This document shows, piece by piece, positions 1-51,917 of a stretch of DNA of 64,000 nt; the first letter of the stretch is position 1, and every line of letters starts with the position of its first letter. A program made the translations under genes and the position numbers. A model generated the notes under the pieces. The model was not told the origin of the DNA and made no database searches. It saw only the letters and a list, made by a program, of their open reading frames with translations. Origin of the DNA: Escherichia coli. Its GTDB lineage: Bacteria; Pseudomonadota; Gammaproteobacteria; Enterobacterales; Enterobacteriaceae. Location of the stretch: assembly GCF_044647545.1 (NCBI RefSeq), contig NZ_CP172818.1; one strand, given 5' to 3'.

Positions 1-69
1 AAGGAGGCAGTATGGCAGTTTCAGCAAGAAATCAATTAACCGGAACAGTTACGCAGTAGCAATGGGCGC

Positions 70-390
70 TTGAATGATGAAGTAGAACCGACGCCGCAGG
101 TGTGCAAAACTTGCAATTGTTACACACAGCAGCCAGCAGGCTCTTGGCCGGGAAAAAGGAAAAAAAGGCGCCCCCCCGAAAAAGCCCCCGGGGGGAAACG
201 CGGAAAAGAAAAGCGGGGGGGAAACTCCCCCCCCCCACCCGCTGCGCGGCGCGCGGGCAAACACCCGCGAAGGGCGGGGGGAGCCCCCTCCAAAAAAAAA
301 AAGGGGGGGTTTTAAAATGGGGGGGAAAAAAAAAAAAAAGGAAGGAAAAAAAAACCCCCTAAAAAAAAAACACCAAAAAGGAAAAATTTG
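70..390. other. Anomalous low-complexity tract with long A, G and C homopolymer runs; unlike the rest of the window
   Basis: Direct reading: runs such as a14, c10, g7; the two ORFs across it encode Lys/Arg/Gly/Pro-rich nonsense. Confidence 0.6.
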
Positions 391-412
391 CCGGAGAGTA
401 TGGCTCTCCGGC
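390..412. terminator. GC-rich hairpin (gccggagag / ctctccggc) downstream of ygbA, with T-rich flanks on both strands; putative bidirectional terminator
   Basis: Inverted repeat read directly. Confidence 0.5.
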
Positions 413-416
413 AGAT

Positions 417-761
417 TTATTTCTTTGGACGATATTTTTCTGGCAACTCCGGCACCGGACGCTTGTCATCGATGAGATGACGCACGGTTAAGATCGGATG
501 ACGCCACAGCATTCGCGGCCCGGCCCAACGCATAATCTGTTTCATCTCTTCACGCTTTGCTGGCTGGTAACAGTGCACCGGACACTGCTTACAGGCTGGT
601 TTCTCTTCGCCGAACACACATTTATCCAGCCGCTTTTGCGCGTAGGCAAACAGCGCGTCGTAATGCTCCGGCTCCGCTGACGCCTGCGGGCATTTCGCTT
701 GATAAAGATCGATCATTTTTTTAATCGTCAGTTTTTCACGAGAGATACGCTTGCCGGACAT
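417..761 (-). CDS. ygbA: Small Cys-rich protein YgbA (nitric oxide-responsive in E. coli)
   Basis: 114-aa ORF; position upstream of and divergent from mutS; Cys motifs CPQ and CKQCPVHC. Confidence 0.8.
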   Translation of the reverse strand: MSGKRISREKLTIKKMIDLYQAKCPQASAEPEHYDALFAYAQKRLDKCVFGEEKPACKQCPVHCYQPAKREEMKQIMRWAGPRMLWRHPILTVRHLIDDKRPVPELPEKYRPKK

Positions 762-1047
762 GCTGCCTCCATACTCTTAAGGTGTATTTATATTACAACT
801 TAATTTGAAAGGGGACTATGGCTCTGAAGGAGGAGGTTTATTCAACCGACGCAATTTTGCGTACTTGCTTCATAAGCATCACGCAAAAGCTGCAAAACAG
901 CATCTTTCCCGGAATCACCATCAAGAACTCGCCGTTCGCTTCTTCCCCTGAAATGATTAACTCCGGTATCATGTGCGCCTTATGTGATAACAACGAAAAT
1001 AAAAACCATCACACCCCATTTAATATCAGGGAACCGGACATAACCCC

Positions 1048-3609
1048 ATGAGTGCAATAGAAAATTTCGATGCCCATACGCCCATGATGCAGCAGTATCT
1101 CAAGCTGAAAGCCCAGCATCCCGAGATCCTGCTGTTTTACCGGATGGGCGACTTTTATGAACTGTTTTATGACGACGCAAAACGGGCGTCGCAACTGCTG
1201 GATATTTCACTGACCAAACGCGGTGCTTCAGCGGGAGAGCCAATCCCGATGGCGGGGATTCCCTACCATGCGGTGGAAAACTACCTCGCCAAACTGGTGA
1301 ACCAGGGCGAATCGGTTGCTATTTGTGAACAGATTGGCGATCCGGCGACCAGCAAAGGGCCGGTCGAGCGCAAAGTTGTCCGTATCGTTACGCCGGGCAC
1401 CATCAGCGATGAAGCGCTGTTGCAGGAACGTCAGGACAACCTGCTGGCGGCTATCTGGCAGGACAGTAAAGGTTTCGGCTACGCAACGCTGGATATCAGT
1501 TCCGGTCGTTTTCGCCTGAGCGAACCGGCGGACCGCGAAACGATGGCGGCAGAACTGCAACGTACGAATCCAGCGGAATTACTGTATGCGGAAGATTTCG
1601 CCGAGATGTCGCTGATTGAAGGTCGCCGCGGCCTGCGTCGTCGCCCGCTGTGGGAGTTTGAAATCGACACCGCGCGCCAGCAGTTAAACTTGCAATTTGG
1701 CACTCGCGATCTGGTCGGTTTTGGCGTCGAGAACGCGCCGCGCGGACTTTGTGCCGCCGGTTGTCTGTTGCAATATGCGAAAGATACCCAACGCACGACC
1801 CTGCCGCATATTCGTTCTATCACTATGGAACGTGAGCAGGACAGCATCATTATGGATGCCGCGACGCGTCGTAACCTGGAAATCACCCAGAATCTGGCGG
1901 GTGGTGCGGAAAATACGCTGGCTTCTGTGCTCGACTGCACCGTCACGCCGATGGGCAGCCGTATGCTGAAACGCTGGCTGCATATGCCAGTGCGCGATAC
2001 CCGCGTCTTGCTTGAGCGCCAGCAAACTATTGGCGCATTGCAGGATTTCACCGCCGAGCTGCAGCCGGTACTGCGTCAGGTCGGCGACCTGGAACGTATT
2101 CTGGCGCGTCTGGCTTTACGAACCGCTCGCCCACGCGATCTGGCCCGTATGCGTCACGCTTTCCAGCAACTGCCGGAGCTGCGTGCACTATTAGAAAATG
2201 TCGAAAGCGCACCGGTACAGGCGCTGCGTGAGAAGATGGGCGAGTTTGCCGAACTGCGCGATCTGCTGGAGCGGGCCATTATCGACACACCGCCGGTACT
2301 GGTGCGCGACGGTGGTGTTATCGCGCCGGGCTATAACGAAGAGCTGGATGAGTGGCGGGCGCTGGCTGACGGCGCGACCGATTATCTGGAGCGTCTGGAA
2401 ATCCGCGAGCGTGAACGTACCGGCCTGGACACGCTGAAAGTCGGCTTTAACGCGGTTCATGGTTATTACATTCAGATCAGCCGTGGACAAAGCCATCTGG
2501 CACCCATCAACTATATGCGTCGCCAGACGCTGAAAAACGCCGAACGCTACATTATTCCAGAGCTAAAAGAGTATGAAGACAAAGTACTCACCTCGAAAGG
2601 TAAAGCACTGGCACTGGAAAAACAGCTTTATGAAGAGTTGTTCGACCTGCTGTTGCCGCATCTGGAAGCGTTGCAACAGAGCGCGAGCGCGCTGGCGGAA
2701 CTCGACGTGCTGGTGAACCTGGCGGAACGGGCCTATACCCTGAACTACACCTGCCCGACCTTTATTGATAAACCTGGCATTCGCATTACCGAAGGCCGCC
2801 ATCCAGTGGTTGAACAGGTACTGAACGAACCGTTTATCGCTAACCCGCTAAACCTGTCGCCACAGCGCCGCATGTTGATCATTACCGGTCCGAACATGGG
2901 CGGTAAAAGTACCTATATGCGCCAGACCGCGTTGATTGCGCTGATGGCGTATATCGGCAGCTACGTACCGGCGCAAAAAGTCGAGATTGGCCCGATCGAC
3001 CGTATCTTTACCCGCGTAGGCGCGGCAGACGATCTGGCATCCGGGCGTTCAACCTTTATGGTGGAGATGACCGAAACCGCCAATATTTTACATAACGCCA
3101 CCGAATATAGTCTGGTGTTGATGGATGAGATCGGGCGTGGAACGTCCACTTACGATGGTCTGTCGCTGGCGTGGGCATGCGCGGAAAATCTGGCAAATAA
3201 GATCAAAGCGTTGACGCTGTTTGCTACCCACTATTTCGAGCTGACCCAGTTACCGGAGAAAATGGAAGGCGTCGCCAACGTGCATCTCGATGCGCTGGAG
3301 CACGGCGACACCATTGCCTTTATGCACAGCGTGCAGGATGGCGCGGCGAGCAAAAGCTACGGCCTGGCGGTTGCAGCTCTGGCAGGCGTGCCAAAAGAGG
3401 TTATTAAGCGCGCACGGCAAAAACTGCGTGAGCTGGAAAGCATTTCGCCGAACGCCGCCGCTACACAGGTTGATGGTACGCAGATGTCCCTGCTTTCTGC
3501 GCCAGAAGAAACGTCGCCTGCGGTCGAGGCACTGGAAAACCTCGACCCGGATTCACTGACTCCGCGTCAGGCGCTGGAGTGGATTTATCGGTTGAAGAGT
3601 CTGGTGTAA
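1048..3609 (+). CDS. mutS: DNA mismatch repair protein MutS
   Basis: 853-aa ORF; Walker [10 protein letters not shown]; N-terminal [17 protein letters not shown] matches E. coli MutS. Confidence 0.97.
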
Positions 3610-3615
3610 TAACAA

Positions 3616-3642
3616 TTCCCGATAGTCTTTTGCTATCGGGAA
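3616..3642 (+). terminator. Hairpin (ttcccgatag / ctatcgggaa) just after the mutS stop
   Basis: 10-bp inverted repeat with a 7-nt loop. Confidence 0.5.
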
Positions 3643-3714
3643 TATTAACGACAACTGACGAATCAAATAAAAATACCCTGTATAATAGGAAATCTTATTT
3701 TACAGGGTAAAACC

Positions 3715-4371
3715 ATGCCATCTACACGCTATCAAAAAATTAATGCCCATCACTATCGTTATATATGGGCCGTTGGTGATATTCATGGTGACTATCAATT
3801 ATTACAATCCCGCTTACATCAACTCTCTTTTTGCCCTGAAACCGACTTACTTATTTCCACAGGCGATAATATTGATCGTGGGCCGAAGAGTCTTAACGTG
3901 CTGCACCTGCTAAACCAACCCTGGTTTACGTCGGTTAAAGGCAACCACGAAGCGATGGCGTTGGATGCATTCGAAACTGGCGATGGAAATATGTGGCTTG
4001 CCAGCGGTGGTGACTGGTTTTTCGATTTAAATGATTCAGAGCAACAAGCGGCAATAGATCTGTTGCTGAAATTCCATCACCTTCCACATATTATTGAAGT
4101 TACTAACGACAACACAAAATATGTCATCACACATGCAGATTATCCGGGGAATGAATATCTCTTTGGTAAAGAAATAGCGGAGAGCGAATTACTCTGGCCT
4201 GTTGATCGTGTGCAGAAATCGCTTAATGGCGAGTTACAACAAATAAACGGCGCTGATTATTTTATATTTGGACATATGGTGTTTGATAACATTCAGACGT
4301 TCGCAAACCAGATTTATATTGATACCGGATCGCCGAAAAGCGGGCGGCTGTCATTTTATAAAATAAAGTAG
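3715..4371 (+). CDS. pphB: Serine/threonine protein phosphatase 2 (PPP family)
   Basis: 218-aa ORF; metallophosphatase motifs GDIHGD, GDNIDRG, GNHE. Confidence 0.9.
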   Translation: MPSTRYQKINAHHYRYIWAVGDIHGDYQLLQSRLHQLSFCPETDLLISTGDNIDRGPKSLNVLHLLNQPWFTSVKGNHEAMALDAFETGDGNMWLASGGDWFFDLNDSEQQAAIDLLLKFHHLPHIIEVTNDNTKYVITHADYPGNEYLFGKEIAESELLWPVDRVQKSLNGELQQINGADYFIFGHMVFDNIQTFANQIYIDTGSPKSGRLSFYKIK

Positions 4372-4372
4372 T

Positions 4373-4398
4373 CTCATGCTTCTTCTGTGAAGCATGAG
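4373..4398. terminator. Hairpin (ctcatgcttc / gaagcatgag) between the convergent genes pphB and ygbI
   Basis: Inverted repeat read directly; no clear T-run on the plus strand. Confidence 0.4.
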
Positions 4399-4420
4399 TA
4401 ACCGAGATGTTCTGCAGGCC

Positions 4421-5190
4421 CCTACTCATTTTTCGCTACCAGCAAAGAGAGATCCTGCTTCGCCAGCACGCAACTGGCGCTCTCCGGCGAAGCCGCATAT
4501 CTAATAATCTGATCAAACTAGTAATGGTAACGCCAGCCATGTCGCCACCTGACCATATTTCGTCGCATCACAGACCAAAACTCGCTGGCGGCTGGCACTG
4601 GCAATCGCCCGTTTCACCGTGACTTTATCTTTCCGCTGGCGTAAATCCCCCGCACACTCCATGACGATGCAGAAATAAAAACCTGATCAATCATCAGGCT
4701 GCGCAGCATGGTCGCAGCGGCTTCCCCGACACAGGAACGGTTTTCCCGACACACTGCACCGCCAGTGTGAATAATTGTGCAATTACTGTTGTCAGCAAGT
4801 AGTTCGCAATAACGAAATCGTTTGTGACCACAGTCAGTGACTCCATGTGAATCAGATGCTGTGCTATCGCTAACGTGGTCGTTCCCGCATCCAGATAGAT
4901 ACAACTTTCCGGCTGAACAGACTTTTGCCGCCAGCTTGCCAATAGCCGCTTTTTGCGTCATTGCCAGCGCAGTTTTACCTAAGTTCGCCATGCGCCACGC
5001 GTCCCGGAGACTGGACGCCTCCGGACACCCAGCACAACGGCTCCCTGCTGCTCCAGTTTTTGTAAATCCCGACGAATGGTCATATGTGACACATTACTCA
5101 TTCTGTCCGTTAGTTCAGCAATACTGACAATGCCTTTTTCAGCTTATCTCAAGGATCATCTGGCGACGCTCTACGGGTATCAACTTTTGC
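4421..5190 (-). pseudogene. ygbI: DeoR-family transcriptional regulator YgbI, disrupted by multiple frameshifts in this sequence
   Basis: Segments matching YgbI (IAELTDRMSNVSHMTIRRDLQKLEQQGAVVL; VSGGVQSPGRVAH; KTALAMTQKAAIGKLAA; CIYLDAGTTTLAIAQHLIHMESLTVVTNDFVIANYLL; NSNCTIIHTGGAVCRENRSCVGEAAATMLRSLMIDQVFISASSWSVRG) lie in different frames on the minus strand; longest intact ORF is 125 aa. Confidence 0.75.
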
Positions 5191-5382
5191 TCCTTCCTTT
5201 GTCCTGCTGACATTCTACGCTATTTGCCTGCGAAACGTGCGCGGCGCAACTAACGCTTAGTTCACATAAAATAACACACAATGTTAATTTATGTGAATCA
5301 GCTCACCATATCGTTATCTTCCAGCGCTTATATTCACAATATCAAACAAAATATCACTTAAATTAACCAACAAGGAGAGCAG

Positions 5383-6291
5383 ATGAAAACGGGATCTGAG
5401 TTTCATGTCGGTATCGTTGGCTTAGGGTGAATGGGAATGGGAGCAGCACTGTCATGTGTCACGAGCAGGTCTTTCTACCTGGGGCGCAGACCTGAACAGC
5501 AATGCCTGCGCTACGTTGAAAGAGGCAGGTGCTTGCGGGGTTGCTTGATAACGCCGCGACGTTTGCCGAAAAACTGGACATTATGCTGGTGCTGGTGGTA
5601 AATGCGGCCCAGGTTAAACAGGTGCTGTTTGGTGAAACGGCGTTTGCACAACATCTGAAACCCGGTACGGCAGTAATGGTTTCTTCCACTATCGCTAGTG
5701 CTGATCGCGCAAGAAATTGCTACCGCTCTGGCTGGATTCGATCTGGAAATGCTGGATGCGCCAGTTTCTGGTGGTGCAGTAAAAGCCGCTAACGGTGAAA
5801 TGACTGTCATGGCCTCCGGTAGCGATATTGCCTTTGAACGACTGGCACCCGTGCTGGAAGCCGTTGCCGGAAAAGTTTATCGCATAGGTGCAGAACCGGG
5901 ACTAAAGAGTTCGACCATTAAAGTTCTTCACCAGTTAGCGGGCGTACATATTGCTGCCGGAGCCGAAGCGATGGCACTTGCAGCCCGTGGGATCCCGCTG
6001 GATGTGATGTATGACGTCGTGACCAATGCCGCCGGAAATTCCTGGATGTTCGAAAACCAGATACGTCATGTGGTGGATGGCGATTACACCCCGCATTCAG
6101 CCGTCGATATTTTTGTTAAGGATCTTGGTCTGGTTGCCGATACAGCCAAAGCCCTGCACTTCCCGCTGCCATTGGCCTCAACAGCATTGAATATGTTCAC
6201 CAGCGCCAGTAACGCGGGTTACGGGAAAGAAGACGATAGCGCAGTTATCAAGATTTTCTCTGGCATCACTCTACCGGGAGCGAAATCATGA
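5383..6291 (+). pseudogene. ygbJ: 3-hydroxyisobutyrate dehydrogenase-family enzyme (L-threonate dehydrogenase YgbJ/LtnD), disrupted by an in-frame TGA and frameshifts
   Basis: MKTGSEFHVGIVGLG followed by TGA at about 5428–5430; homologous pieces in three frames (ORFs 5529..5792 and 5698..6291). Confidence 0.75.
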
Positions 6292-7454
6292 TCAAGATTG
6301 GCGTTATCGCCGATGATTTTACCGGCGCGACGGATATCGCCAGTTTTCTGGTGGAAAACGGTCTACCAACGGTACAAATTAACGGTGTTCCAACAGGTAA
6401 AATGCCGGAAGCAATCGACGCACTGGTGATCAGCCTGAAAACGCGCTCCTGTCCAGTGGTTGAAGCCACACAGCAATCGCTGGCGGCTCTGAGCTGGTTG
6501 CAACAGCAAGGTTGCAAACAGATCTATTTCAAATACTGCTCTACTTTCGACAGTACGGCGAAAGGTAATATTGGCCCGGTTACCGATGCCTTAATGGATG
6601 CTCTCGACACGCCGTTTACGGTCTTCTCTCCGGCCCTGCCGGTCAACGGACGTACGGTTTATCAGGGGTATTTGTTCGTAATGAATCAACTGCTGGCCGA
6701 ATCCGGGATGCGCCATCACCCGGTAAATCCCATGACCGACAGCTATCTTCCCCGTCTGGTTGAAGCGCAATCCACAGGGCGCTGCGGCGTCGTTTCGGCA
6801 CATGTTTTCGAACAAGGTGTGGATGCCGTTCGTCAAGAGCTGGCTCGCTTACAGCAAGAGGGCTACCGCTACGCGGTGCTTGATGCGCTGACCGAACACC
6901 ATCTGGAAATTCAGGGAGAAGCCTTGCGCGATGCCCCACTGGTAACGGGCGGTTCTGGTCTGGCGATTGGCCTGGCCCGGCAGTGGGCGCAAGAAAACGG
7001 TAACCAGGCTCGCAAAGCAGGGCGTCCGCTCGCTGGGCGCGGCGTAGTGCTCTCCGGTTCATGCTCTCAAATGACCAACCGCCAGGTAGCACATTACCGT
7101 CAAATTGCACCAGCCCGTGAAGTTGATGTGGCACGCTGCCTCTCAATTGAAACTCTGGCCGCTTATGCACACGAACTGGCAGAGTGGGTTCTGGGCCAGG
7201 AAAGTGTACTTGCTCCACTGGTTTTTGCCACCGCCAGCACTGACGCATTGGCAGCAATTCAACAGCAATACGGTGCACAAAAAGCCAGTCAGGCAGTAGA
7301 AACACTGTTTTCTCAACTAGCGGCGCGGTTAGCAGCGGAAGGCGTGACACGCTTTATTGTCGCAGGCGGTGAGACCTCCGGCGTAGTCACACAGAGCCTG
7401 GGAATAAAAGGGTTTCATATTGGCCCAACCATTTCCCCGGCGTGCCGTGGGTAA
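6288..7454 (+). CDS. ygbK: Four-carbon acid-sugar kinase family protein (3-oxo-tetronate kinase, YgbK/OtnK)
   Basis: 388-aa ORF; N-terminal MIKIGVIADDFTGATD typical of this kinase family; start overlaps the ygbJ stop. Confidence 0.85.
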   Translation: MIKIGVIADDFTGATDIASFLVENGLPTVQINGVPTGKMPEAIDALVISLKTRSCPVVEATQQSLAALSWLQQQGCKQIYFKYCSTFDSTAKGNIGPVTDALMDALDTPFTVFSPALPVNGRTVYQGYLFVMNQLLAESGMRHHPVNPMTDSYLPRLVEAQSTGRCGVVSAHVFEQGVDAVRQELARLQQEGYRYAVLDALTEHHLEIQGEALRDAPLVTGGSGLAIGLARQWAQENGNQARKAGRPLAGRGVVLSGSCSQMTNRQVAHYRQIAPAREVDVARCLSIETLAAYAHELAEWVLGQESVLAPLVFATASTDALAAIQQQYGAQKASQAVETLFSQLAARLAAEGVTRFIVAGGETSGVVTQSLGIKGFHIGPTISPACRG

Positions 7455-7545
7455 ACGCACTGGATAAGCCTGTCTCACTCGCCCTTAAATCTGGCAACTT
7501 CGGTGATGACGCCTTTTTTTCACGAGCCCAAAGAGAGTTTTTATC

Positions 7546-8184
7546 ATGAGCGATTTCGCAAAAGTAGAGCAGTCTTTGCGAGAGGAGATGACGCGGATTG
7601 CCAGTTCATTCTTTCAGCGCGGCTATGCAACCGGTTCGGCTGGCAATCTGTCGCTGCTTTTACCTGACGGGAATTTACTGGCGACACCGACAGGTTCATG
7701 CCTGGGCAATCTCGATCCGCAGCGGCTTTCCAAAGTCGCCGCGGATGGCGAATGGTTAAGTGGTGACAAACCCTCGAAAGAGGTGCTCTTTCATCTGGCG
7801 CTGTATCGCAACAATCCGCGCTGTAAAGCGGTGGTGCATTTGCACAGCACATGGTCGACGGCGCTTTCCTGCCTGCAAGGGCTGGACAGCAGCAACGTTA
7901 TTCGTCCGTTCACACCATACGTGGTGATGCGGATGGGAAATGTCCCGCTGGTGCCTTATTACCGACCGGGCGATAAACGCATCGCACAGGATCTGGCGGA
8001 ACTGGCAGCAGACAATCAGGCTTTTTTACTGGCAAATCATGGCCCAGTGGTTTGCGGTGAAAGCCTGCAAGAAGCCGCCAACAATATGGAAGAGCTGGAG
8101 GAAACGGCAAAGCTGATTTTTATTCTCGGTGACCGCCCGATCCGTTATCTGACCGCAGGTGAAATTGCGGAATTAAGGAGTTAA
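7546..8184 (+). CDS. ygbL: Class II aldolase/adducin-family protein (3-oxo-tetronate 4-phosphate decarboxylase, YgbL/OtnC)
   Basis: 212-aa ORF; operon context. Confidence 0.85.
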
Positions 8185-8188
8185 TGCA

Positions 8189-8965
8189 ATGCCTCGTTTT
8201 GCAGCTAATTTATCCATGATGTTCACCGAAGTGCCTTTTATTGAACGCTTCGCCGCAGCGCGAAAAGCCGGGTTCGATGCTGTGGAATTTCTGTTTCCCT
8301 ATAACTACTCCACCCTGCAAATCCAAAAGCAACTGGAGCAAAACCATCTGACACTGGCGCTGTTCAATACCGCTCCCGGAGATATTAATGCGGGGGAATG
8401 GGGATTATCCGCCCTTCCCGGACGTGAGCACGAAGCACACGCAGACATCGACCTGGCACTGGAATATGCATTGGCGCTCAATTGTGAACAAGTCCATGTG
8501 ATGGCAGGCGTCGTGCCCGCTGGCGAAGATGCTGAACGGTACCGGGCAGTATTTATCGATAATATCCGCTACGCTGCCGACCGCTTTGCGCCACACGGCA
8601 AGCGAATATTAGTTGAAGCACTCAGCCCCGGCGTTAAGCCTCATTATCTCTTCTCCAGCCAGTATCAGGCACTGGCTATTGTTGAAGAGGTTGCGCGAGA
8701 TAACGTGTTTATTCAACTAGATACTTTTCATGCGCAAAAAGTAGATGGCAACCTGACGCATTTAATCCGCGACTACGCCGGGAAATATGCGCACGTACAA
8801 ATTGCCGGACTACCTGATCGACATGAACCGGACGATGGAGAAATCAACTATCCGTGGCTGTTCCGCCTGTTCGATGAGGTGGGATATCAGGGCTGGATCG
8901 GTTGTGAATATAAACCTCGTGGCCTCACCGAAGAAGGGCTTGGCTGGTTTGACGCCTGGCGCTAA
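8189..8965 (+). CDS. ygbM: Hydroxypyruvate isomerase-like TIM-barrel protein (2-oxo-tetronate isomerase, YgbM/OtnI)
   Basis: 258-aa ORF; operon context. Confidence 0.85.
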
Positions 8966-9053
8966 TTCGTTAAATCCCTAATTACAACGTACCCATACAT
9001 CCCCCCATCTACGGATGGGGTAGGTTAACTATAACTTTCAGACAGGGTTTCCC

Positions 9054-10418
9054 ATGTCCACAATTACATTGTTATGCATTGCGTTAGCTGGCGTAATCAT
9101 GCTGTTGCTGCTGGTCATCAAGGCAAAGGTACAACCATTCGTTGCTTTGCTCCTCGTCAGCCTGTTAGTCGCACTTGCGGCAGGTATACCGGCGGGCGAA
9201 GTGGGTAAAGTGATGATCGCCGGGATGGGCGGTGTGCTTGGTTCCGTCACTATTATTATTGGTCTGGGCGCTATGCTGGGGCGTATGATCGAACACTCTG
9301 GTGGTGCAGAGTCACTGGCTAATTATTTCAGTCGCAAGTTAGGTGACAAACGAACTATCGCTGCGCTGACTCTGGCAGCGTTCTTCCTCGGTATTCCCGT
9401 CTTCTTTGATGTCGGCTTTATTATTCTTGCGCCAATCATTTACGGTTTTGCCAAGGTTGCCAAAATATCGCCACTCAAATTTGGCCTGCCTGTCGCTGGG
9501 ATCATGCTCACTGTTCACGTGGCGGTACCGCCGCATCCAGGCCCTGTCGCCGCAGCGGGGTTACTCCACGCAGACATCGGCTGGCTAACCATCATCGGTA
9601 TTGCGATTTCTATTCCCGTAGGGGTTGTTGGCTACTTTGCAGCGAAAATAATCAATAAGCGCCAATATGCGATGTCAGTAGAAGTACTGGAACAGATGCA
9701 ACTGGCTCCGGCCAGTGAGGAAGGCGCGACAAAATTAAGCGATAAAATAAATCCACCGGGCGTCGCGCTGGTCACCTCGCTAATTGTTATTCCTATCGCG
9801 ATTATCATGGCGGGTACGGTTTCCGCAACACTGATGCCGCCTTCGCATCCCCTGCTTGGTACGCTACAGCTGATCGGCTCACCAATGGTAGCTCTAATGA
9901 TTGCGCTGGTGCTGGCATTCTGGTTATTGGCTTTACGTCGCGGCTGGAGCTTACAACACACCAGCGACATTATGGGCTCAGCGCTTCCTACTGCGGCGGT
10001 AGTGATTTTGGTTACTGGTGCTGGAGGGGTATTTGGCAAAGTGCTGGTGGAATCGGGCGTCGGCAAAGCCCTTGCCAACATGCTACAAATGATTGACCTG
10101 CCTCTGTTACCAGCCGCATTTATTATTTCACTGGCGCTGCGTGCATCGCAGGGGTCAGCAACCGTAGCAATACTGACAACCGGCGGGTTACTCTCAGAAG
10201 CGGTGATGGGATTGAATCCGATTCAGTGCGTATTGGTGACGCTGGCAGCCTGCTTTGGTGGGCTTGGTGCGTCACATATTAATGACTCAGGGTTCTGGAT
10301 TGTGACCAAATATCTGGGGTTGTCGGTAGCAGACGGTCTGAAAACCTGGACAGTGTTAACGACCATTCTCGGTTTTACCGGATTCTTAATTACCTGGTGC
10401 GTATGGGCGGTAATTTGA
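9054..10418 (+). CDS. ygbN: GntP-family acid-sugar permease
   Basis: 454-aa highly hydrophobic ORF. Confidence 0.85.
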   Translation: MSTITLLCIALAGVIMLLLLVIKAKVQPFVALLLVSLLVALAAGIPAGEVGKVMIAGMGGVLGSVTIIIGLGAMLGRMIEHSGGAESLANYFSRKLGDKRTIAALTLAAFFLGIPVFFDVGFIILAPIIYGFAKVAKISPLKFGLPVAGIMLTVHVAVPPHPGPVAAAGLLHADIGWLTIIGIAISIPVGVVGYFAAKIINKRQYAMSVEVLEQMQLAPASEEGATKLSDKINPPGVALVTSLIVIPIAIIMAGTVSATLMPPSHPLLGTLQLIGSPMVALMIALVLAFWLLALRRGWSLQHTSDIMGSALPTAAVVILVTGAGGVFGKVLVESGVGKALANMLQMIDLPLLPAAFIISLALRASQGSATVAILTTGGLLSEAVMGLNPIQCVLVTLAACFGGLGASHINDSGFWIVTKYLGLSVADGLKTWTVLTTILGFTGFLITWCVWAVI

Positions 10419-10430
10419 CCTTAATAAAAA

Positions 10431-10457
10431 GGTCCGATGGGCATCGGACCTTTTATT
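10431..10457. terminator. Rho-independent bidirectional terminator between ygbN and rpoS (ggtccgatg ggc atcggacc + TTTTATT; A-run upstream)
   Basis: Perfect 9-bp stem flanked by A and T tracts. Confidence 0.8.
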
Positions 10458-10511
10458 GTGCACAGAAAAGGCCAGCCTCATAAGAGACTGGCCTTTATGA
10501 CAGATGCTTAC

Positions 10512-11504
10512 TTATTCGCGGAACAGCGCTTCGATATTCAGCCCCTGCGTTTGCAGGATTTCGCGCAAACGGCGCAGGCCTTCAACCTGAATCTGGCGAA
10601 CACGTTCACGGGTGAGGCCAATTTCACGACCTACATCTTCCAGTGTTGCCGCTTCGTACCCCAGCAAACCGAATCGACGTGCCAGTACTTCACGCTGTTT
10701 GGCGTTCAGCTCGAACAGCCATTTGACGATGCTCTGCTTCATATCGTCATCTTGCGTGGTATCTTCCGGACCGTTCTCTTTTTCATCGGCCAGGATGTCC
10801 AGCAACGCTTTTTCGGAATCACCACCCAGCGGGGTGTCTACCGAGGTAATGCGCTCGTTAAGACGAAGCATACGGCTGACGTCATCAACTGGCTTATCCA
10901 GTTGCTCTGCGATCTCTTCCGCACTTGGTTCATGGTCCAGTTTATGGGACAACTCGCGTGCGGTTCGCAGGTAAACGTTCAGCTCCTTTACGATGTGAAT
11001 CGGCAAACGAATAGTACGGGTTTGGTTCATAATCGCCCGTTCGATCGTCTGGCGAATCCACCAGGTTGCGTATGTTGAGAAGCGGAAACCACGTTCCGGG
11101 TCAAACTTCTCTACCGCGCGGATCAGCCCCAGGTTGCCCTCTTCGATAAGATCCAGCAAAGCCAGACCACGATTGCCATAACGGCGGGCAATTTTTACCA
11201 CCAGACGCAAGTTACTCTCGATCATCCGGCGGCGAGAGGCAACATCTCCACGCAGTGCGCGACGCGCAAAATAAACTTCTTCTTCGGCCGTTAACAGTGG
11301 TGAATAACCAATCTCACCAAGGTAAAGCTGAGTCGCGTCCAGCACACGCTGTGTGGCTCCCTGCGATAACAGTTCCTCTTCGGCCAAATCGTTATCACTG
11401 GGTTCCTCTTCTACTAAGGCCTTTTCGTCAAAAACCTCAACTCCGTTCTCATCAAATTCCGCATCTTCATTTAAATCATGAACTTTCAGCGTATTCTGAC
11501 TCAT
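10512..11504 (-). CDS. rpoS: RNA polymerase sigma factor RpoS (sigma-38)
   Basis: Sigma-70-family protein starting [21 protein letters not shown] (330 aa); the ORF track extends 12 codons upstream to an earlier ATG. Confidence 0.95.
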
Positions 11505-11566
11505 AAGGTGGCTCCTACCCGTGATCCCTTGACGGAACATTCAAGCAAAAGCCTGGTTCCGCCGAT

Positions 11567-12706
11567 TTATCGCTGCGGCAAATAACGCAGCGGGTTTACG
11601 GATTTCCCCTTGTAACGAATTTCAAAATGCAAGCGTGTTGAACTGGTTCCGGTGCTACCCATGGTTGCTATTTTTTGCCCCGCCTTCACTTCTTGTTGTT
11701 CCCGGACCAGCATTGTGTCGTTATGGGCGTAGGCACTCAGGTAATCATCATTATGTTTGATGATAATCAGATTACCGTAGCCGCGCAGCGCGTTACCGGC
11801 ATAAACAACGCGGCCATCTGCAGTCGCGATAATTGCCTGTCCTTTGCTGCCTGCGATATCAATCCCCTTGTTGCCCCCCTCAGAAGCGCCAAAGGTTTCG
11901 ATCACTTTGCCCTCAGTCGGCCAGCGCCAGGTGGAGATAGGCGTACTGGTTGATGTACTGCTGACAGTCGGCTCGGTTGTGCTTGCTGTTGGTACCGTTA
12001 CAGGCGCTGTGACCGTGGTCGCAGTTGGCTTGTTGTTCGGCAACATTTTGTTAGCACTCTGTTCACCCGAAGACTCAGAATACGTAATTGTCGGTTGCGA
12101 AGCAACAGCAACGGTGGAATTTTGTGCAGGCTTGATCACAACTCCTTGCTCTGCTGCGTCGGCCTGGGTAATGGCATTTCCGCCAGTGATTGGCGTACCG
12201 GAAGCATTCCCCACCTGTAAGGTCTGACCGACGTTCAGCGCATATGGTGCCTGAATATTGTTGCGCTGAGCAAGGTCACGGAAATCGTTGCCAGTAATCC
12301 AGGCGATATAGAAAAGTGTGTCGCCTTTTTTCACGGTGTATGTACTGCCGCTATAACTGCCTTTCGGAATGTTCCCATACTGACGGTTGTAGACGATTCG
12401 TCCGTTTTCCATCTGTACCGGCTGCTGAGCTACTGGCTGCACAGGCTGGATTTGCGGTTGTTGAGTAGCCTGAATTTGTGGCTGCTGTACCGGCTGAATT
12501 TGCGGTTGCTGCGCTGTAGACGTCGTCCCCATTTTCGACGGCGGCGTAATCAACATACCAGAATTGGTATTTGTAGGCGCATTGCCATTAACGGAGCTGA
12601 CCGGTGCCGGTGGATTTGAAGTGTCAGAACAGCCTGCCAGCCATAGCGAAACCAGTGACAAAGCCGCAATGCGGCGAACGGTGAATTTTGGGCTTCCCGC
12701 GCTCAT
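11567..12706 (-). CDS. nlpD: Murein hydrolase activator lipoprotein NlpD (LysM + M23 peptidase-like)
   Basis: 379-aa ORF; lipobox LAGC; Gln/Pro-rich repeat; C-terminal M23 domain. Confidence 0.95.
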
Positions 12707-12845
12707 TTATCCCCCAGGAAAAATTGGTTAATAACCAGTGACATAATTACCGTGCAAGGCACCATACTGAACACTGGAAAAGATGTTCACGATACGCTGA
12801 CTTGCGGCAAAATAACCAGGAAAAATCCAGGTATTTCCTCACGTT

Positions 12846-14207
<1,362 letters not shown>

Positions 14208-14227
<20 letters not shown>

Positions 14228-15257
14228 AATCACCTGTTGTGTTGATAAGTTCCCTGACAACGCTGGTTGCAAAACTACCCGCCGGAAGCCAGAAACGGAT
14301 TTCTACGGTGACGTCATCCCACCAGTTCCAGCTTAATTGTTGCGGATACAGCAGCATCGCTCTGCGCGCGGCTTCAACTTTTTCGCGCACCAGTAAGGCT
14401 TGTAATTCAGTTTCTGCGGCGACAGCTGCTTGTTCGAATGCCAGCGCTTCACGCTGAGTTCCCCATTCGCCACTGCCCGGCAATGCGGCGGTTATCATCA
14501 GCTCTTTATCGTTGACGCGACGCTGTAATTCCACCAGTTCTTCGGTGGTTGCGACAAACCAGCTACCACGTCCGGCTAATTGTAGCGCATCGCCGTCAAC
14601 AACTTGATTAACGTCTGCTTTTTTGAGGCGCTCAGCAACAATCTGATTAAACAACGCACTGCGGGCTGCCGACAACCAAAAACTCCGTTTATTGCGATCG
14701 CGCACCGGAGTATTGGTTTGCGCCCAGCGCAGCGCGCCCTGCAAGTTGCTACCGCCAATCCCAAAACGTTGGGCACCGAAGTAGTTCGGTACACCTTTTA
14801 CGCAAATATCGATCAGACGTTGTTCAACGTCATCGCGATTGCTCACTTCGCGCAGAACCAGGGTAAAGGCGTTACCTTTCAGCGCGCCTAAACGCAGCTT
14901 GCGCTTGTGCCGCGCATACTCCAGCACCTGGCAGCCTTCCAGTTGAAAGGCGCTCAGATCGGGCATCTCTTTGCCCGGCACGCGAGCGCATAACCACTGT
15001 TCCGTAACAGCATGTTTGTCTTTTTGCCCAGCGAAGCTGACTTCACGGGAATGAATTTTCAGGAATTTCGCCAGTGCATCCGCCACAAAACGGGTATTGC
15101 AGCCGTTTTTGAGGATTCTAACCAGAATATGCTCACCTTCACCATCAGGCTCAAAGCCCAAATCTTCCACCACCACAAAGTCTTCCGGATTGGCTTTCAG
15201 CAGCCCGGTGCCTTGCGGTTTACCGTGGAGGTAAGTGAGATTATCAAACTCAATCAT
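14208..15257 (-). CDS. truD: tRNA pseudouridine(13) synthase TruD
   Basis: 349-aa ORF; operon position. Confidence 0.93.
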
Positions 15258-15733
15258 TTTGTTGCCTTAATGAGTAGCGCCACCGCTTCACAGGCAATCC
15301 CTTCCCCACGTCCGGTAAATCCAAGTTTTTCCGTAGTAGTGGCTTTCACGTTAACATCATCCATATGGCAGCCGAGATCTTCGGCAATAAACACGCGCAT
15401 TTGTGGAATGTGCGGCAACATCTTCGGTGCCTGAGCGATGATAGTGACATCGACGTTGCCAAGGGTATAACCCTTCGCCTGAATACGACGCCAGGCTTCG
15501 CGTAGCAGCTCGCGGCTGTCGGCACCTTTAAATGCCGGATCGGTATCCGGGAACAGTTTGCCGATATCCCCCAGCGCCGCCGCGCCAAGCAATGCATCGG
15601 TCAACGCATGGAGCGCCACATCGCCATCAGAATGCGCCAGCAATCCTTTTTCGTAAGGAATGCGTACGCCACCAATGATAATTGGGCCTTCACCGCCAAA
15701 GGCGTGTACGTCAAAACCGTGTCCAATTCGCAT
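15254..15733 (-). CDS. ispF: 2-C-methyl-D-erythritol 2,4-cyclodiphosphate synthase
   Basis: 159-aa ORF; [14 protein letters not shown]. Confidence 0.95.
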
Positions 15734-16443
15734 TATGTATTCTCCTGATGGATGGTTCGGGTGAGGTAAAACTCGGCCAGTGCCAAATCTTCCGGGCGCG
15801 TGACTTTAATGTTATCCGCGCGGCCTTCGACCAACTGCGGATGAAATCCGCAATATTCCAGCGCCGAGGCTTCGTCGGTAATGGTAGCGCCTTCATTTAG
15901 AGCGCGCGTCAGGCAGTCATGTAACAGCTCACGAGGGAAAAATTGCGGCGTCAGCGCGTGCCATAAGCCGTTGCGATCAACGGTATGAGCAATGGCATTT
16001 TTGCCCGGTTCGGCACGTTTCATCGTATCGCGCACTGGTGCGGCGAGGATCCCCCCCGTGCGGCTGGTTTCGCTCAACGCCAACAGGCGCGCGAGGTCAT
16101 CCTGATGCAGACAAGGACGAGCGGCATCATGCACCAATACCCACTGCGCGTCGCCAGCGGCTTTCAAACCTGCCAGCACGGAATCGGCACGCTCATCACC
16201 GCCATCTACAACGGTGATTTGCGGATGATTCGCCAGAGGAAGTTGTGCAAAACGGCTATCGCCAGGACTTATGGCAATGACGACATGTTTCACCCGGGGA
16301 TGCGCCAGCAGCGCATGCACCGAGTGTTCAAGAATGGTTTGATTACCGATTGAGAGATATTGCTTAGGACATTCCGTTTGCATTCGACGGCCAAATCCGG
16401 CCGCCGGAACCACGGCGCAAACATCCAAATGAGTGGTTGCCAT
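15733..16443 (-). CDS. ispD: 2-C-methyl-D-erythritol 4-phosphate cytidylyltransferase
   Basis: 236-aa ORF; 1-bp overlap with ispF. Confidence 0.95.
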
Positions 16444-16461
16444 GTTAATTCCTGGGCTGAT

Positions 16462-16773
16462 TTATCGATTGTTTTGCCCCGCAGACTGTGCGCGCTTCGA
16501 CGCGTCAGGCACCAGACGATAAAAAGTTTCGCCCGGCCTGGTCATGCTGAGTTCATTACGCGCACGCTCTTCGAGCGCCTCCTGGCCGCCATTGAGATCG
16601 TCAATTTCGGCAAAAAGTTGATCGTTTCGCGCTTTAAGTTTCGCGTTTGTAGCTTGCTGTGCCGCCACATCATCATTGACGCGGGTATAGTCATGTATAC
16701 CGTTCTTACCGAACCACAGCGAATACTGTAGCCAGACCAGAATAGCCAGCAACAGCAGCGTTAGTTTACCCAT
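16462..16773 (-). CDS. ftsB: Cell division protein FtsB
   Basis: 103-aa ORF; N-terminal transmembrane segment followed by coiled coil. Confidence 0.93.
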
Positions 16774-16966
16774 CCTGCCCCCTGAAAAACGGCATCATCA
16801 TCCCATGCATCCGAAGACGACTCTACATCCTCTGTTGGGGATACCGCGACAACGCGGGCAAATGTACCACATTTGTCCATTGTTACGTATACCCAGGGCG
16901 TGCAGAACATAATCTCATTATTAGTTACGGTTTGAATTATGAACAGAGGAGACAAGAAAGTACAAA

Positions 16967-17290
16967 TTAGCCCAGTAGCCACATAAACAGTGCGCCAAAC
17001 ATAATGCCTACTGTCACCAGGGTGAAAACAATACTGTAGCGTAGCTTTCCGTCCATCAATGAATGCAGCGCAATCCCCACCACTACCGCGACAGGCATCA
17101 GTGCCAGAAAGAAAGGCCAGGTGTAGATAAAGAAGAACAGCGTGTTAGAGCCATAAATCAACATCGGCATCGCCAGCGCAAATAACCATGAGATAAAACC
17201 GACCACGGCACCAGGCAGTGACCATGTGGTTTCTTCATCCTCAGTAAGGCTGTCGTTATTTGTTAGTGTAATGTTATGGCTATTACGCAT
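16967..17290 (-). CDS. ygbE: Inner membrane protein YgbE
   Basis: 107-aa hydrophobic ORF; position. Confidence 0.8.
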   Translation of the reverse strand: MRNSHNITLTNNDSLTEDEETTWSLPGAVVGFISWLFALAMPMLIYGSNTLFFFIYTWPFFLALMPVAVVVGIALHSLMDGKLRYSIVFTLVTVGIMFGALFMWLLG

Positions 17291-17339
17291 ATTTGATCCT
17301 GTTACTTTGACGAACCGGGCATGGAAACCCGGTGGTGTC

Positions 17340-17945
17340 TCAGGATCTGATAATATCGTTCTGTCTCAACAGATCTAATAATTGCTGTACCAAATTTGTT
17401 ACTAATTGTTCACCATTGAGATGAATTTCTGCCGATTCAGGCGCTTCGTAAACGGAATCTATTCCCGTAAAGTTGCGCAGTTCACCGGCACGCGCTTTCT
17501 TATATAAGCCTTTTGGATCGCGGGCTTCGCAAATCGCCAGCGGTGTATCGACAAACACTTCGATAAAGCGCCCTTCTCCTACGCGTTCGCGAACCATCTG
17601 GCGTTCGGCGCGGTGTGGCGAGATAAATGCGGTCAGCACCACCAGTCCGGCTTCAACCATCAAATTCGCCACTTCACCGACGCGACGGATATTCTCTTTA
17701 CGATCGGCATCGCTAAAACCGAGATCGCTGCATAATCCGTGGCGAACATTGTCGCCATCCAGCAGATACGTACTGACGCCGAGTTTATGTAACGCCTCCT
17801 CCAGCGCCCCGGCGACCGTTGATTTACCGGACCCGGAGAGGCCGGTAAACCACAGCACTACACCACGATGACCGTGGTGTAGCTCGCGTTGTTGCACAGT
17901 GACTGGATGGCTATGCCAGACGACGTTTTCGTCATGCAGCGCCAT
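17340..17945 (-). CDS. cysC: Adenylyl-sulfate (APS) kinase
   Basis: 201-aa ORF; P-loop GLSGSGKST. Confidence 0.95.
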
Positions 17946-19372
17946 TATTTATCTCCCAGCAAATCGCGCGCGCCCCAGTGCGGAAAGTGGCGGCGAACCA
18001 GAGCATTCAATTCCAGTTCGAATACACTGAATTGAGATGGCGCAGCAGTTGCCTGGCTAACTGGCTCGTGCACCATACCGGCACCTACGGTCACATTGCT
18101 CAGGCGATCGATTAAAATCAGCCCACCGGTCACCGGATTTTGCTGATAACGATCTAACACCAGTGGCTCGTCAAAGGTGAGATCTACCAGGCCGATGCCG
18201 TTCAGCGGCAGGTTTTCAACTTCGCGTTGGGTAAGGTTATTAATATCAACCTGATAACGAATACCATCAACACGAGCACGCGTCTTCTTACCGGCAATTT
18301 TGATGTCATAACTCTGGCCCGGGGAAAGCGGCTGTTCCGCCATCCATACCACATCCACCGACGCGCTCTGCACAGCCGGTAACGCTTCGTCTGCCGCCAG
18401 CAGCAGATCGCCACGGCTGATGTCGATCTCATCCGTCAGCACCAGGGTGATCGCTTCTCCGGCAAAGGCTTCTTCGCGATCGCCATCAAAAGTCACGATC
18501 CGCGCGACGTTTGATTCCACACCAGAGGGCAGCACTTTGACACGTTGCCCGACTTCCACGCGACCGGATGCCAGCGTTCCGGCGTAGCCACGAAAATCGA
18601 GATTCGGACGGTTAACGTACTGCACCGGGAAGCGCATTGGCTGAGCATCCACCACTCGCTGGATCTCCACGGTTTCCAGCACTTCTAGCAGTGTCGGACC
18701 GCTGTACCACGGCATACTTTCACTTTGCGAAGCCACGTTGTCGCCTTCCAGTGCGGAGAGCGGCACAAAGCGGATATCCAGATTACCCGGCAGCTGCCCG
18801 GCAAAAGTCAGATAATCTTCACGAATACGGGTGAACGTCTCTTCACTGTAATCCACCAGATCCATTTTGTTGATCGCCACGACCAGATGTTTGATCCCCA
18901 ACAGTGTGGAGATAAAACTGTGACGACGGGTTTGATCGAGCACGCCTTTACGGGCATCGATCAGTAAGATCGCCAGTTCACATGTCGATGCGCCAGTCGC
19001 CATATTGCGGGTGTACTGCTCGTGCCCTGGGGTGTCGGCGATAATAAATTTACGCTTCTCGGTAGAGAAATAGCGGTAGGCCACATCAATAGTGATGCCC
19101 TGTTCGCGCTCAGCTTGCAGGCCGTCCACCAGCAGTGCCAGATCCAGCTTTTCGCCCTGGGTGCCGTGACGCTTACTGTCGTTATGCAGCGATGAGAGCT
19201 GATCTTCGTAGATTTGGCGGGTATCGTGTAGCAGGCGACCAATCAGGGTACTTTTGCCGTCATCGACGCTACCACAGGTCAGAAAACGCAGCAGGCTTTT
19301 ATGTTGTTGCGCAATCATCCAGGCTTCGACGCCGCCTTCATTGGCGATTTGTTGTGCAAGTGCGGTGTTCAT
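17945..19372 (-). CDS. cysN: Sulfate adenylyltransferase subunit 1 (GTPase)
   Basis: 475-aa ORF; GTP-binding motifs [18 protein letters not shown]. Confidence 0.95.
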
Positions 19373-19373
19373 C

Positions 19374-20282
19374 TTAAAAATACCCCTGACGTTTTTTCAG
19401 CTCCATAGACCCCGCCTGGTCGCGGTCAATCACGCGGCCCTGACGTTCACTGGTGGTGGAAACCAGCATCTCTTCGATGATCTCCGGCAGTGTTTGTGCA
19501 TTTGACTCCACCGCACCGGTCAGCGGCCAGCAGCCCAGCGTACGGAAACGCACCATCCGTTTTTTAATCACTTCGCCCGGTTGCAGGTCGATACGGTTGT
19601 CATCAATCATCATCAACATACCGTCGCGTTCCAGAACCGGACGTTCCGCAGCGAGATACAGCGGCACAATGTCGATATTTTCCAGCCAGATGTATTGCCA
19701 GATATCCTGCTCGGTCCAGTTAGAGAGCGGGAAGACGCGGATGCTTTCGCCTTTGTTAATTTGCCCGTTGTAGTTGTGCCACAGCTCCGGGCGCTGATTT
19801 TTCGGATCCCAGCGATGGAAGCGGTCACGGAAAGAGTAGATTCGCTCTTTAGCGCGGGATTTCTCTTCGTCACGACGTGCGCCACCGAAGGCGGCATCAA
19901 AACCGTATTTGTTCAGCGCCTGTTTCAGGCCTTCAGTTTTCATAATATCGGTATGTTTCGCGCTGCCGTGTACGAATGGATTAATCCCCATCGCCACGCC
20001 TTCCGGGTTTTTATGCACCAGCAGCTCGCAGCCGTAGGCTTTCGCCGTACGATCGCGGAACTCATACATCTCGCGGAATTTCCAGCCGGTATCGACATGC
20101 AGCAACGGGAAAGGCAGCGTACCTGGATAAAACGCCTTGCGCGCCAGATGCAGCATGACGCTGGAATCTTTACCGATAGAGTAGAGCATCACCGGATTTG
20201 AGAATTCTGCAGCCACCTCGCGAATAATGTGGATGCTTTCCGCCTCCAGTTGCCGCAGGTGAGTAAGTCGTTTTTGATCCAT
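19374..20282 (-). CDS. cysD: Sulfate adenylyltransferase subunit 2
   Basis: 302-aa ORF; PAPS reductase-like fold. Confidence 0.95.
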
Positions 20283-20533
20283 AACCGTTCCTTTGCAATA
20301 CCGCTATTTTCTTGCCATCAGATGTTTCGACTATAGGGAGCGCAGGAGAACGAATGAAATTACCAATTAGAATGAGTAGTTCCTTAACGGAATAACGATT
20401 TGGCAAAGCTAATGTCAAAAAGTGCTTAAGGCACCAGATTTCGGGCGTTTAGGAAGATTTGAAATTGTTTTAGCGCATCGGCAGTTTCATACTATGGCGG
20501 TAAAAAAATTTGCATGGTATTTAAGGACTCACT

Positions 20534-21571
20534 ATGTTTTCCGCATTGCGCCACCGTACCGCTGCCCTGGCGCTCGGCGTATGCTTTATTCTCCCCGTAC
20601 ACGCCTCGTCACCTAAACCTGGCGATTTTGCTAATACCCAGGCACGACATATTGCTACTTTCTTTCCGGGACGCATGACCGGAACTCCTGCAGAAATGTT
20701 ATCTGCCGATTATATTCGCCAACAGTTTCAGCAAATGGGTTATCGCAGTGATATTCGGACATTTAATAGTCGGTATATTTATACCGCCCGCGATAATCGC
20801 AAGAGCTGGCATAACGTGACGGGAAGTACGGTGATTGCCGCTCATGAAGGCAAAGCTCCGCAGCAGATTATCATTATGGCGCATCTGGATACTTACGCCC
20901 CGCTGAGCGATGCTGACGCCGATGCCAATCTCGGCGGGCTGACGTTACAAGGAATGGATGATAACGCCGCAGGTTTAGGTGTCATGCTGGAATTGGCAGA
21001 ACGCCTGAAAAATACGCCTACCGAGTATGGTATTCGATTTGTGGCGACCAGCGGCGAAGAGGAAGGGAAATTAGGCGCTGAGAATTTACTCAAGCGGATG
21101 AGTGACACCGAAAAGAAAAATACGCTGCTGGTGATTAATCTCGATAACTTAATTGTTGGCGATAAATTGTATTTCAACAGTGGTGTAAAAACCCCTGAAG
21201 CAGTAAGGAAATTAACGCGCGACAGGGCACTGGCAATTGCGCGTAGTCATGGAATTGCCGCAACGACCAATCCGGGTTTGAATAAAAATTATCCGAAGGG
21301 TACTGGCTGTTGTAATGACGCCGAAGTTTTCGACAAAGCCGGTATTGCGGTACTTTCGGTGGAGGCGACCAACTGGAATCTTGGAAATAAGGATGGTTAT
21401 CAGCAACGCTCAAAAACACCGGCCTTCCCGGCGGGAAATAGCTGGCATGATGTAAGGCTTGATAATCAACAGCATATTGATAAGGCGCTTCCTGGAAGAA
21501 TAGAACGTCGTTGCCGTGATGTTATGCGGATAATACTACCGCTGGTGAAGAAACTGGCGAAGGCGTCTTGA
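20534..21571 (+). CDS. iap: Alkaline phosphatase isozyme conversion aminopeptidase (M28 family)
   Basis: 345-aa ORF with signal peptide; immediately upstream of the CRISPR array. Confidence 0.92.
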   Translation: MFSALRHRTAALALGVCFILPVHASSPKPGDFANTQARHIATFFPGRMTGTPAEMLSADYIRQQFQQMGYRSDIRTFNSRYIYTARDNRKSWHNVTGSTVIAAHEGKAPQQIIIMAHLDTYAPLSDADADANLGGLTLQGMDDNAAGLGVMLELAERLKNTPTEYGIRFVATSGEEEGKLGAENLLKRMSDTEKKNTLLVINLDNLIVGDKLYFNSGVKTPEAVRKLTRDRALAIARSHGIAATTNPGLNKNYPKGTGCCNDAEVFDKAGIAVLSVEATNWNLGNKDGYQQRSKTPAFPAGNSWHDVRLDNQQHIDKALPGRIERRCRDVMRIILPLVKKLAKAS

Positions 21572-21652
21572 TGGGTTTGAAAATGGGAGCTGCGAGTTCT
21601 ACCGCAGGGGCGGGGAATTCTAAGTGATATCCATCATCGCATCCAGTGCGCC

Positions 21653-22418
21653 CGGTTTATCCCCGCTGGCGCGGGGAATCGCCGGAAAATATTCATGATG
21701 GGGGTGGTTATGGCGGTTTATCCCCGCTGGCGCGGGGAATCTCGGGGCCGCCGTGTTCACATTTGCCTAATTTCCCGGTTTATCCCCGCTGGCGCGGGGA
21801 ACTCTATCATAAACGAGGTGAATTTATGGAAACTGTACGGTTTATCCCCGCTGGCGCGGGGAACTCGTTAGTTTTCGAAAAAATTGTTTTCTTACGCTGG
21901 TTTATCCCCGCTGGCGCGGGGAACTCAATTATTGTCGTGGACAAATGCCGGTGTTATTGCGGTTTATCCCCGCTGGCGCGGGGAACTCATTCGAGACAAT
22001 CTCTCAAAATTAATGAAATCGGTTTATCCCCGCTGGCGCGGGGAACTCCAGGTATCAAGAAATAATCGAAGCCTTCATGACGGTTTATCCCCGCTGGCGC
22101 GGGGAACTCAATTGATTGCTGGGTGATATTGGAAAATGTTGCGGTTTATCCCCGCTGGCGCGGGGAACTCCTACCGTACAGATCCTGACCGGATATTATT
22201 TTTTTGCGGTTTATCCCCGCTGGCGCGGGGAACTCCGACGTTCGACGAAATGCGCGATGGCGGTCGGCGGTTTATCCCCGCTGGCGCGGGGAACTCTTCT
22301 GCGTCCCCGATGTCTGGCCCGACTGGTCCGGTTTATCCCCGCTGGCGCGGGGAACTCTATATGACCGGAACACTTCCGCCTGACGTTTGCGGTTTATCCC
22401 CGCTGGCGCGGGGAACTC
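21653..22418 (-). CRISPR. CRISPR array, type I-E repeat (plus strand CGGTTTATCCCCGCTGGCGCGGGGAACTC), 13 repeats and 12 spacers; leader at the high-coordinate end
   Basis: Repeat starts at about 21653, 21714, 21776, 21838, 21898, 21960, 22020, 22081, 22142, 22207, 22268, 22329, 22390; the two leader-distal repeats end GAATCG/GAATCT. Confidence 0.97.
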
Positions 22419-22523
22419 TCTAAAAGTATACATTTGTTCTTAAAGCATTTTTTCCCATAAAAACAACCCACCAACCTTAATGTAACATTTCCTTATTATT
22501 AAAGATCAGCTAATTCTTTGTTT
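22419..22523 (-). promoter_or_regulatory. AT-rich CRISPR leader between the last repeat and cas2
   Basis: AT-rich non-coding segment adjoining the consensus repeat; leader role is from established knowledge of type I-E arrays. Confidence 0.7.
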
Positions 22524-23727
<1,204 letters not shown>

Positions 23728-23742
23728 TTTATTACACCTAAA

Positions 23743-25003: not shown

Positions 25004-25005
25004 GT

Positions 25006-26097: not shown

Positions 26098-26109
26098 AGA
26101 AAGGTTTCC

Positions 26110-49378: not shown

Positions 49379-49671
49379 AGCATTCTCTGTGAAGTGGATA
49401 ATTGTTAATTATTGCAGATCCTGCCACAACAATCATGTCTTATTAACATTCTGTTACAGGCAGGTTTAAAGAAAAATGAGAAACAGATCGTTAATAATAA
49501 AAGGAAGTAACGTATTATGTCAGAAATAAATAAAGTAAAGGGATTTAATCATGTCAAAAACATTCACCGAAATTATACTTATTTTTTCTGTGTTCGTTTT
49601 TAATTATAACGAATCTCAAATTACCGGTGCCGCCGTCAATTTATTTATCCAGCTTTAATGGGACATTTATA

Positions 49672-50544: not shown

Positions 50545-50552
50545 CTCAACCA

Positions 50553-50603: not shown

Positions 50604-51917
<1,314 letters not shown>

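Follow-up and report, generated by a model that had tools for sequence, protein, structure and literature searches.

The window analysed here is a stretch of 64,000 nucleotides of Escherichia coli DNA (NZ_CP172818.1), and it starts 11 nt 5′ of an ATG. A Shine–Dalgarno sequence, AGGAGG (2–7, plus strand), the same as that upstream of CDS WP_000301062.1 in FDAARGOS_497, is followed on the same strand by a mini-ORF of 15 codons (MAVSARNQLTGTVTQ; 12–59, with the ATG at 12–14 and a TAG stop at 57–59), and then by a tract rich in homopolymer runs. To the right of the tract a terminator-like hairpin, present on both strands (384–418, core stem 390–412), separates the convergent TOBE gene from ygbA (417–761, minus strand, 114 amino acids). 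By the ORF list and by identity to related strains ygbA is intact, and it lies inside a block of 100% identity to those strains at 386–4370; mutS (1048–3609) is downstream of it. The strong ribosome binding site, start codon, 15 codons and TAG reported in the initial annotation are present in the sequence as described.

The tract and the gene beneath it

Positions 1–416 contain 19 homopolymer runs of at least 5 nt, and 10 of the 23 runs of at least 7 nt in the whole 64 kb sit within 160–370, among them A14, A11, A10, C10 and A9. From the background rate 0.043 such runs would be expected in that interval, and the probability of 10 or more is 5.7e-21. Runs of at least 4 nt account for 57% of the bases in the 250 nt starting at 126 and for 39% in the 250 nt starting at 251, against a median of 5.6%, and T makes up only 15 of the 251 bases between 140 and 390. 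These counts bear out the initial annotation, which had described a homopolymer-rich tract unlike any other part of the window. Its limits, given there as 70–390, hold only in part: the run-rich sequence covers approximately 150–386, and 70–150 is ordinary sequence, near-identical to an intact TOBE gene. The three ORFs spanning the tract (81, 86 and 52 amino acids) are of low complexity, as had been noted, and none gave a match in Pfam even at E ≤ 1.

The mini-ORF had been taken for a separate item preceding the tract, a reading that does not stand. Its residues 1–13 are the true N terminus of a 142-amino-acid tandem-TOBE protein. A G is absent after position 51, and this first single-nucleotide deletion shifts the frame, so that the TAG at 57–59 comes into frame and ends the ORF. 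When the G was put back after position 51, the translation became MAVSARNQLTGTVSAVAMGA / ...TGTVSAVAMGA, matching the intact protein. Mini-ORF and tract are one gene, that for the 142-amino-acid tandem-TOBE protein, and the mini-ORF is its start, cut short by an artefactual deletion.

The intact gene is carried by 1,890 of 5,426 complete E. coli genomes, at 97.5–100% identity and always as a single aligned piece. K-12 is without it, and there fhlA is followed directly by ygbA. The protein encoded by the intact gene (WP_000301062.1) has two TOBE domains: it matched PF03459 over two stretches (E = 8.8e-35; 119 bits, cut-off 22.3), and TIGR00638 likewise over two stretches (142 bits, cut-off 55). 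The resemblance of the mini-ORF to a TOBE/Mop N terminus, pointed out in the initial annotation, is thereby accounted for. Residues 1–140 of the intact protein align with residues 4–143 of ModG from Azotobacter vinelandii (PDB 1H9J chain A), the nearest relative of solved structure, over the full length, with E = 5e-33. ModG, a member of the TOBE/Mop family (PF03459, TIGR00638), is a di-Mop molbindin of the cytoplasm, and the intact E. coli orthologue likewise consists of two tandem Mop domains in about 140 amino acids; the copy in the window, in contrast, becomes unreadable after codon 13 and shares only the first 13 residues with the intact orthologue. ModG binds molybdate and has a role in molybdenum homeostasis (PMC11980592, where the background to the TOBE/Mop family is summarised). 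From its family membership only, the intact E. coli protein is predicted to bind molybdate or tungstate.

Some records label the tandem-TOBE gene modE (PMC7232297). This identity was rejected for the intact protein, which scored 88 bits with the ModE profile NF007957 (cut-off 369), matched only profile positions 124–261, the di-Mop half, and is without the N-terminal winged-helix DNA-binding half. A tandem-TOBE gene at the fhlA/ygbA site, present in many E. coli and absent from K-12, has already been described (PMC7232297). The window copy agrees with that gene in position, orientation and neighbours; nothing biological differs, and the window copy is damaged. The underlying gene, ModG-like and accessory, belongs to the fhlA/ygbA/mutS hotspot and is ordinary and already known.

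The error gradient and the search for the tract elsewhere

Positions 1–385 align in register with the intact 429-nt CDS WP_000301062.1, which lies between fhlA and ygbA in FDAARGOS_497. Identity to this CDS in successive 40-nt bins was 1.00, 0.95, 0.84, 0.90, 0.67, 0.52, 0.65, 0.67, 0.48 and 0.51, and then 1.00. Four zones, all on the plus strand, can be distinguished. The start of the gene (1–51) is free of error and 100% identical to the related strains in the alignment. It is followed by a zone of early degradation that can still be read (52–167), with 92% identity, 7 substitutions and 7 bases, mostly G, deleted in 6 events; all 6 gap openings here are deletions in the window. A blurred zone (168–320) consists of A, G and C runs that are still significantly homologous, position by position, to the true gene (z about 9). 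In the terminal zone (321–385) the signal of the true sequence is undetectable (z = 0.0 against run-preserving shuffles), about 50 reference bases are gone and the true stop codon has disappeared. Calculated in the same way, against shuffles that kept runs intact, positional homology to the true gene gave z = 8.7 for 168–385 as a whole, 9.4 for 168–260 and 5.8 for 261–385.

When the tract was compared with the intact gene, 57 of the 62 mismatched bases were equal to their own neighbour. Substitutions away from T numbered 31 and substitutions towards T numbered 0. Reference bases missing from the tract amounted to 75 and extra bases in the window to 13, a net loss of 62, and mean run length rose along the tract from 1.4 to 4.9, compared with 1.37 in the true gene. 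Degradation stops abruptly. The adjoining block 386–4370 is 100.000% identical to FDAARGOS_497 over 3,985 nt, with 0 mismatches and 0 gaps, so that 334 nt of tract with more than 100 differences directly adjoin 3,985 unchanged nucleotides. The right end of the tract, 385/386, is also the point at which K-12 homology resumes (from 385 by blastn; exact identity to the related strains begins at 386).

The initial annotation had remarked that exact recurrence of the sequence in independent, high-quality assemblies would speak against an artefact. Among 5,426 complete genomes of E. coli, not one reproduced the tract. The best megablast matches to window positions 1–1100 among these genomes covered 80% of the query in two pieces, and were annotated as TOBE domain-containing protein, ygbA and mutS. 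An exact tract pattern of 56 nt had no match in 100,044 species-representative genomes (GTDB representatives), a 51-nt pattern had none in JGI metagenome contigs, and the 86- and 81-amino-acid ORF products were absent from an index of 153 billion genes.

Mosaic structure of the window and further damaged patches

Compared with FDAARGOS_497 and WP4-S18-ESBL-09, the window is exactly identical at 386–4370, 10466–21678, 22189–47779 and 48339–64000, and blocks of exact identity to this lineage or to K-12 account for 60,853 of its 64,000 bases. Positions 420–64000 form one colinear HSP with K-12 (63,581 against 63,576 nt). On this comparison of sequences, the window is K-12 in architecture and carries the SNPs of the FDAARGOS_497/WP4 lineage. 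WP4 and K-12 differ in large-scale structure at four places here: the TOBE insertion, the pphB–rpoS segment and the two CRISPR arrays. Each of the four coincides with a damaged patch, the first patch being the tract itself (52–385). A 37-nt difference in gudD (window approximately 62460–62504) was considered as a fifth site of K-12 architecture and rejected, the deletion being private to WP4 and FDAARGOS_497 being the same as the window. The gudD gene of WP4-S18-ESBL-09 (NZ_AP022098.1), with its private 37-nt deletion, is annotated as frameshifted; those of the window and FDAARGOS_497 are intact.

The second patch (4371–6063) contains a K-12-type ygbI and the 5′ part of ltnD, with both ORFs broken by approximately 25 small indels, which together amount to about 44 bases, and by substitutions that come in bursts. 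Complete E. coli genomes gave no better match to it than 96.3%, and the truncated LtnD fragment was not in the gene index. A blend with the pad/MarR segment of the related strains was considered as its source and discarded, the ungapped identity being 0.24 with no local similarity. The patch is probably a second corrupted stretch, and it adjoins a perfect K-12 block. This block (6064–10479; 4,416 nt) is identical to K-12 MG1655 and comprises the 3′ part of ltnD, otnK (388 amino acids), ygbL, ygbM and ygbN; the related strains carry the pad/MarR genes here. The OtnK of the window is the common K-12 allele, found in 18,051 blocks of the gene index. The switch from K-12 to related-strain sequence takes place inside a shared stretch of 14 nt (10466–10479) at the boundary of heterology, and this junction is absent from all 5,426 complete genomes (best match 98.3%). 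Natural recombination was rejected as the source of the K-12 block: both switches lie at heterology boundaries, the right-hand one within only 14 shared nucleotides, and the junction occurs in no natural genome. These features suggest that the block is template carry-over or chimeric.

The remaining two patches are in the CRISPR arrays. In CRISPR-1 (array 21653–22418) the patch at 21678–22188 has the spacers of the related strains; the differences private to the window number 13, of which 12 are indel bases and 1 is a substitution, as taken only from the alignment rows of the window against WP4. Some of its spacers measure 31, 33 or 36 nt rather than 32, and two repeats contain 1-nt indels (21678 and 21740). 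The fourth patch, in CRISPR-2 (47780–48338; array approximately 47966–48367), has the short K-12 architecture, where the related strains have 19 spacers. Its first spacer is a garbled spacer of the related strains, the interior ones are K-12 spacers in garbled form, and the last begins as in K-12 and ends as in the related strains. The array is a position-wise blend of both genomes, and its repeats are perfect. Between the two arrays lies a complete type I-E cas operon (cas2 to cas3; 22523–31174), 100% identical to that of the related strains and ordinary.

Origin of the tract

The crowding of over 100 changes into 334 nt beside 3,985 unchanged nucleotides, mismatches that copy a neighbour, loss of T, worsening in one direction and an abrupt stop together indicate a defect of the record rather than mutation. 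We are therefore close to certain that the tract is an artefact of the record and not a sequence that existed in a cell. The initial annotation had proposed a sequencing artefact, and a degraded copy of a real gene between flanks of 100% identity, reproduced in no other assembly searched, fits that proposal. Its further suggestion of a chimeric junction also gains support, the window being a chimera of a FDAARGOS_497-like genome and K-12. We hold with high confidence that 1–385 is a corrupted rendering of an ordinary tandem-TOBE gene; the most likely route to it is by way of a degrading read tail and a K-12 template.

By this route, sequence information coming from the left, the fhlA side, would decay with distance, from a perfect 51 nt to isolated 1-nt deletions. 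Base calls would then smear into their neighbours, giving growing runs of A, G and C with loss of T and of bases, and finally noise. The untrimmed, degrading tail of one or a few co-terminal reads, running rightward out of fhlA, would have been taken as consensus, and may have been accepted since the strain-specific insertion, missing from the K-12 template, had no other coverage. At 386, where template homology resumes, the consensus would revert to well-supported sequence. The source record apparently rests on a K-12 template; it is damaged at every large structural difference between K-12 and a FDAARGOS_497/WP4-like strain. A blur model, in which left-anchored copies with linear drift and linearly growing variance were combined by majority vote, gave an ungapped identity of 0.59–0.61 over 168–385, compared with 0.50 without blur, a result that is suggestive only. 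The accelerating error rate fits a decay of quality within reads better than register drift among uniformly noisy reads.

The same one-way loss of accuracy, smeared runs, base loss and abrupt recovery are seen in public assemblies with untrimmed, low-quality read tails or with a chimeric consensus guided by a reference. The tract likewise has directional decay, miscalls that copy their neighbours, base-specific loss and no independent reproduction. Reference-guided chimeric consensus also retains the template where the sample has no corresponding sequence and blends repeat arrays. The window combines template architecture with sample SNPs, retained template and blended repeats, with the caveat that the TOBE insertion is not in K-12. 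That caveat bears on the mechanism: a consensus made purely in K-12 coordinates would leave the TOBE insertion out, and an extra step bridging the gap must be assumed. Nor does the damaged stretch 4371–6063, beside a perfect K-12 block, follow from a read-tail mechanism. For the specific combination of read tail and K-12 template we would put the chances at about even.

An ordinary error of de novo assembly, independent of K-12, is the foremost of the other explanations, and we consider it appreciably less probable. A low-quality read tail at a spot of low coverage or at a contig join would give the tract, and the K-12 block and CRISPR arrays would be a separate matter, for example those of a real recombinant strain. 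The accelerating error profile, which fits within-read quality decay, is in keeping with such an error, as is the position of the junction next to a strong GC-rich hairpin; hairpins of this kind can stop sequencing reads arriving from the other side. However, each of the four patches falls at a large structural difference between K-12 and the lineage of the strain, and homology to K-12 returns at the end of the tract. The 14-nt switch at the heterology boundary, seen in no natural genome, is moreover hard to square with homologous recombination.

Sequence filled in by computation seems improbable. A gap-filler, a consensus "smoother" or a generative model would have defaulted, in regions that resisted assembly, either to K-12 or to low-complexity runs, and degenerate runs are typical of sequence generators that are failing. 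It would be consistent with the left-to-right direction of all the patches, with the perfect repeats of CRISPR-2 and its spacers that resemble an imperfect recall of those of K-12, and with a 4.4-kb block that is exactly K-12. Against it, positional homology to the strain's true gene over approximately 320 nt argues for a signal from real DNA, and indels occur also within the repeats of CRISPR-1, as with random read noise.

That the tract is real DNA, whether a decayed pseudogene, a hypermutated segment or a phase-variable cluster of homopolymers replacing the TOBE gene, is very unlikely. Some bacterial contingency loci are homopolymer tracts, and the tract occupies the site of a dispensable accessory gene that K-12 is missing. 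However, a natural pseudogene was rejected on the private nature of the differences and on their confinement, with zero in the next 3,985 nt, and a phase-variable contingency locus on the presence of the gene in a single piece in all 1,890 genomes that carry it, with no intermediate among them and the tract in no complete genome. The one-way gradient with its abrupt restoration, the neighbour-copying mismatches and the selective loss of T also stand against real DNA, as do three further damaged patches that include physically implausible CRISPR spacers and a blend of K-12 with the related strains. A slippage-prone repair or synthesis process that smeared its template, rewriting 330 nt into runs in the DNA of a real isolate and leaving the neighbours untouched, is barely credible.

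The preferred reading, a corrupted rendering of an ordinary gene in a K-12-templated record, matters for data hygiene only. Annotators working from this record would call features that do not exist: a 15-amino-acid "Mop" peptide, hypothetical proteins rich in lysine, glycine and proline, disrupted copies of ygbI and ltnD, and aberrant CRISPR spacers. They would also infer a K-12-type mutS–rpoS region and CRISPR-2, neither of which the relatives of the strain possess. The warning thus extends beyond the tract to the record itself, which would be a K-12-templated chimera with several corrupted segments.
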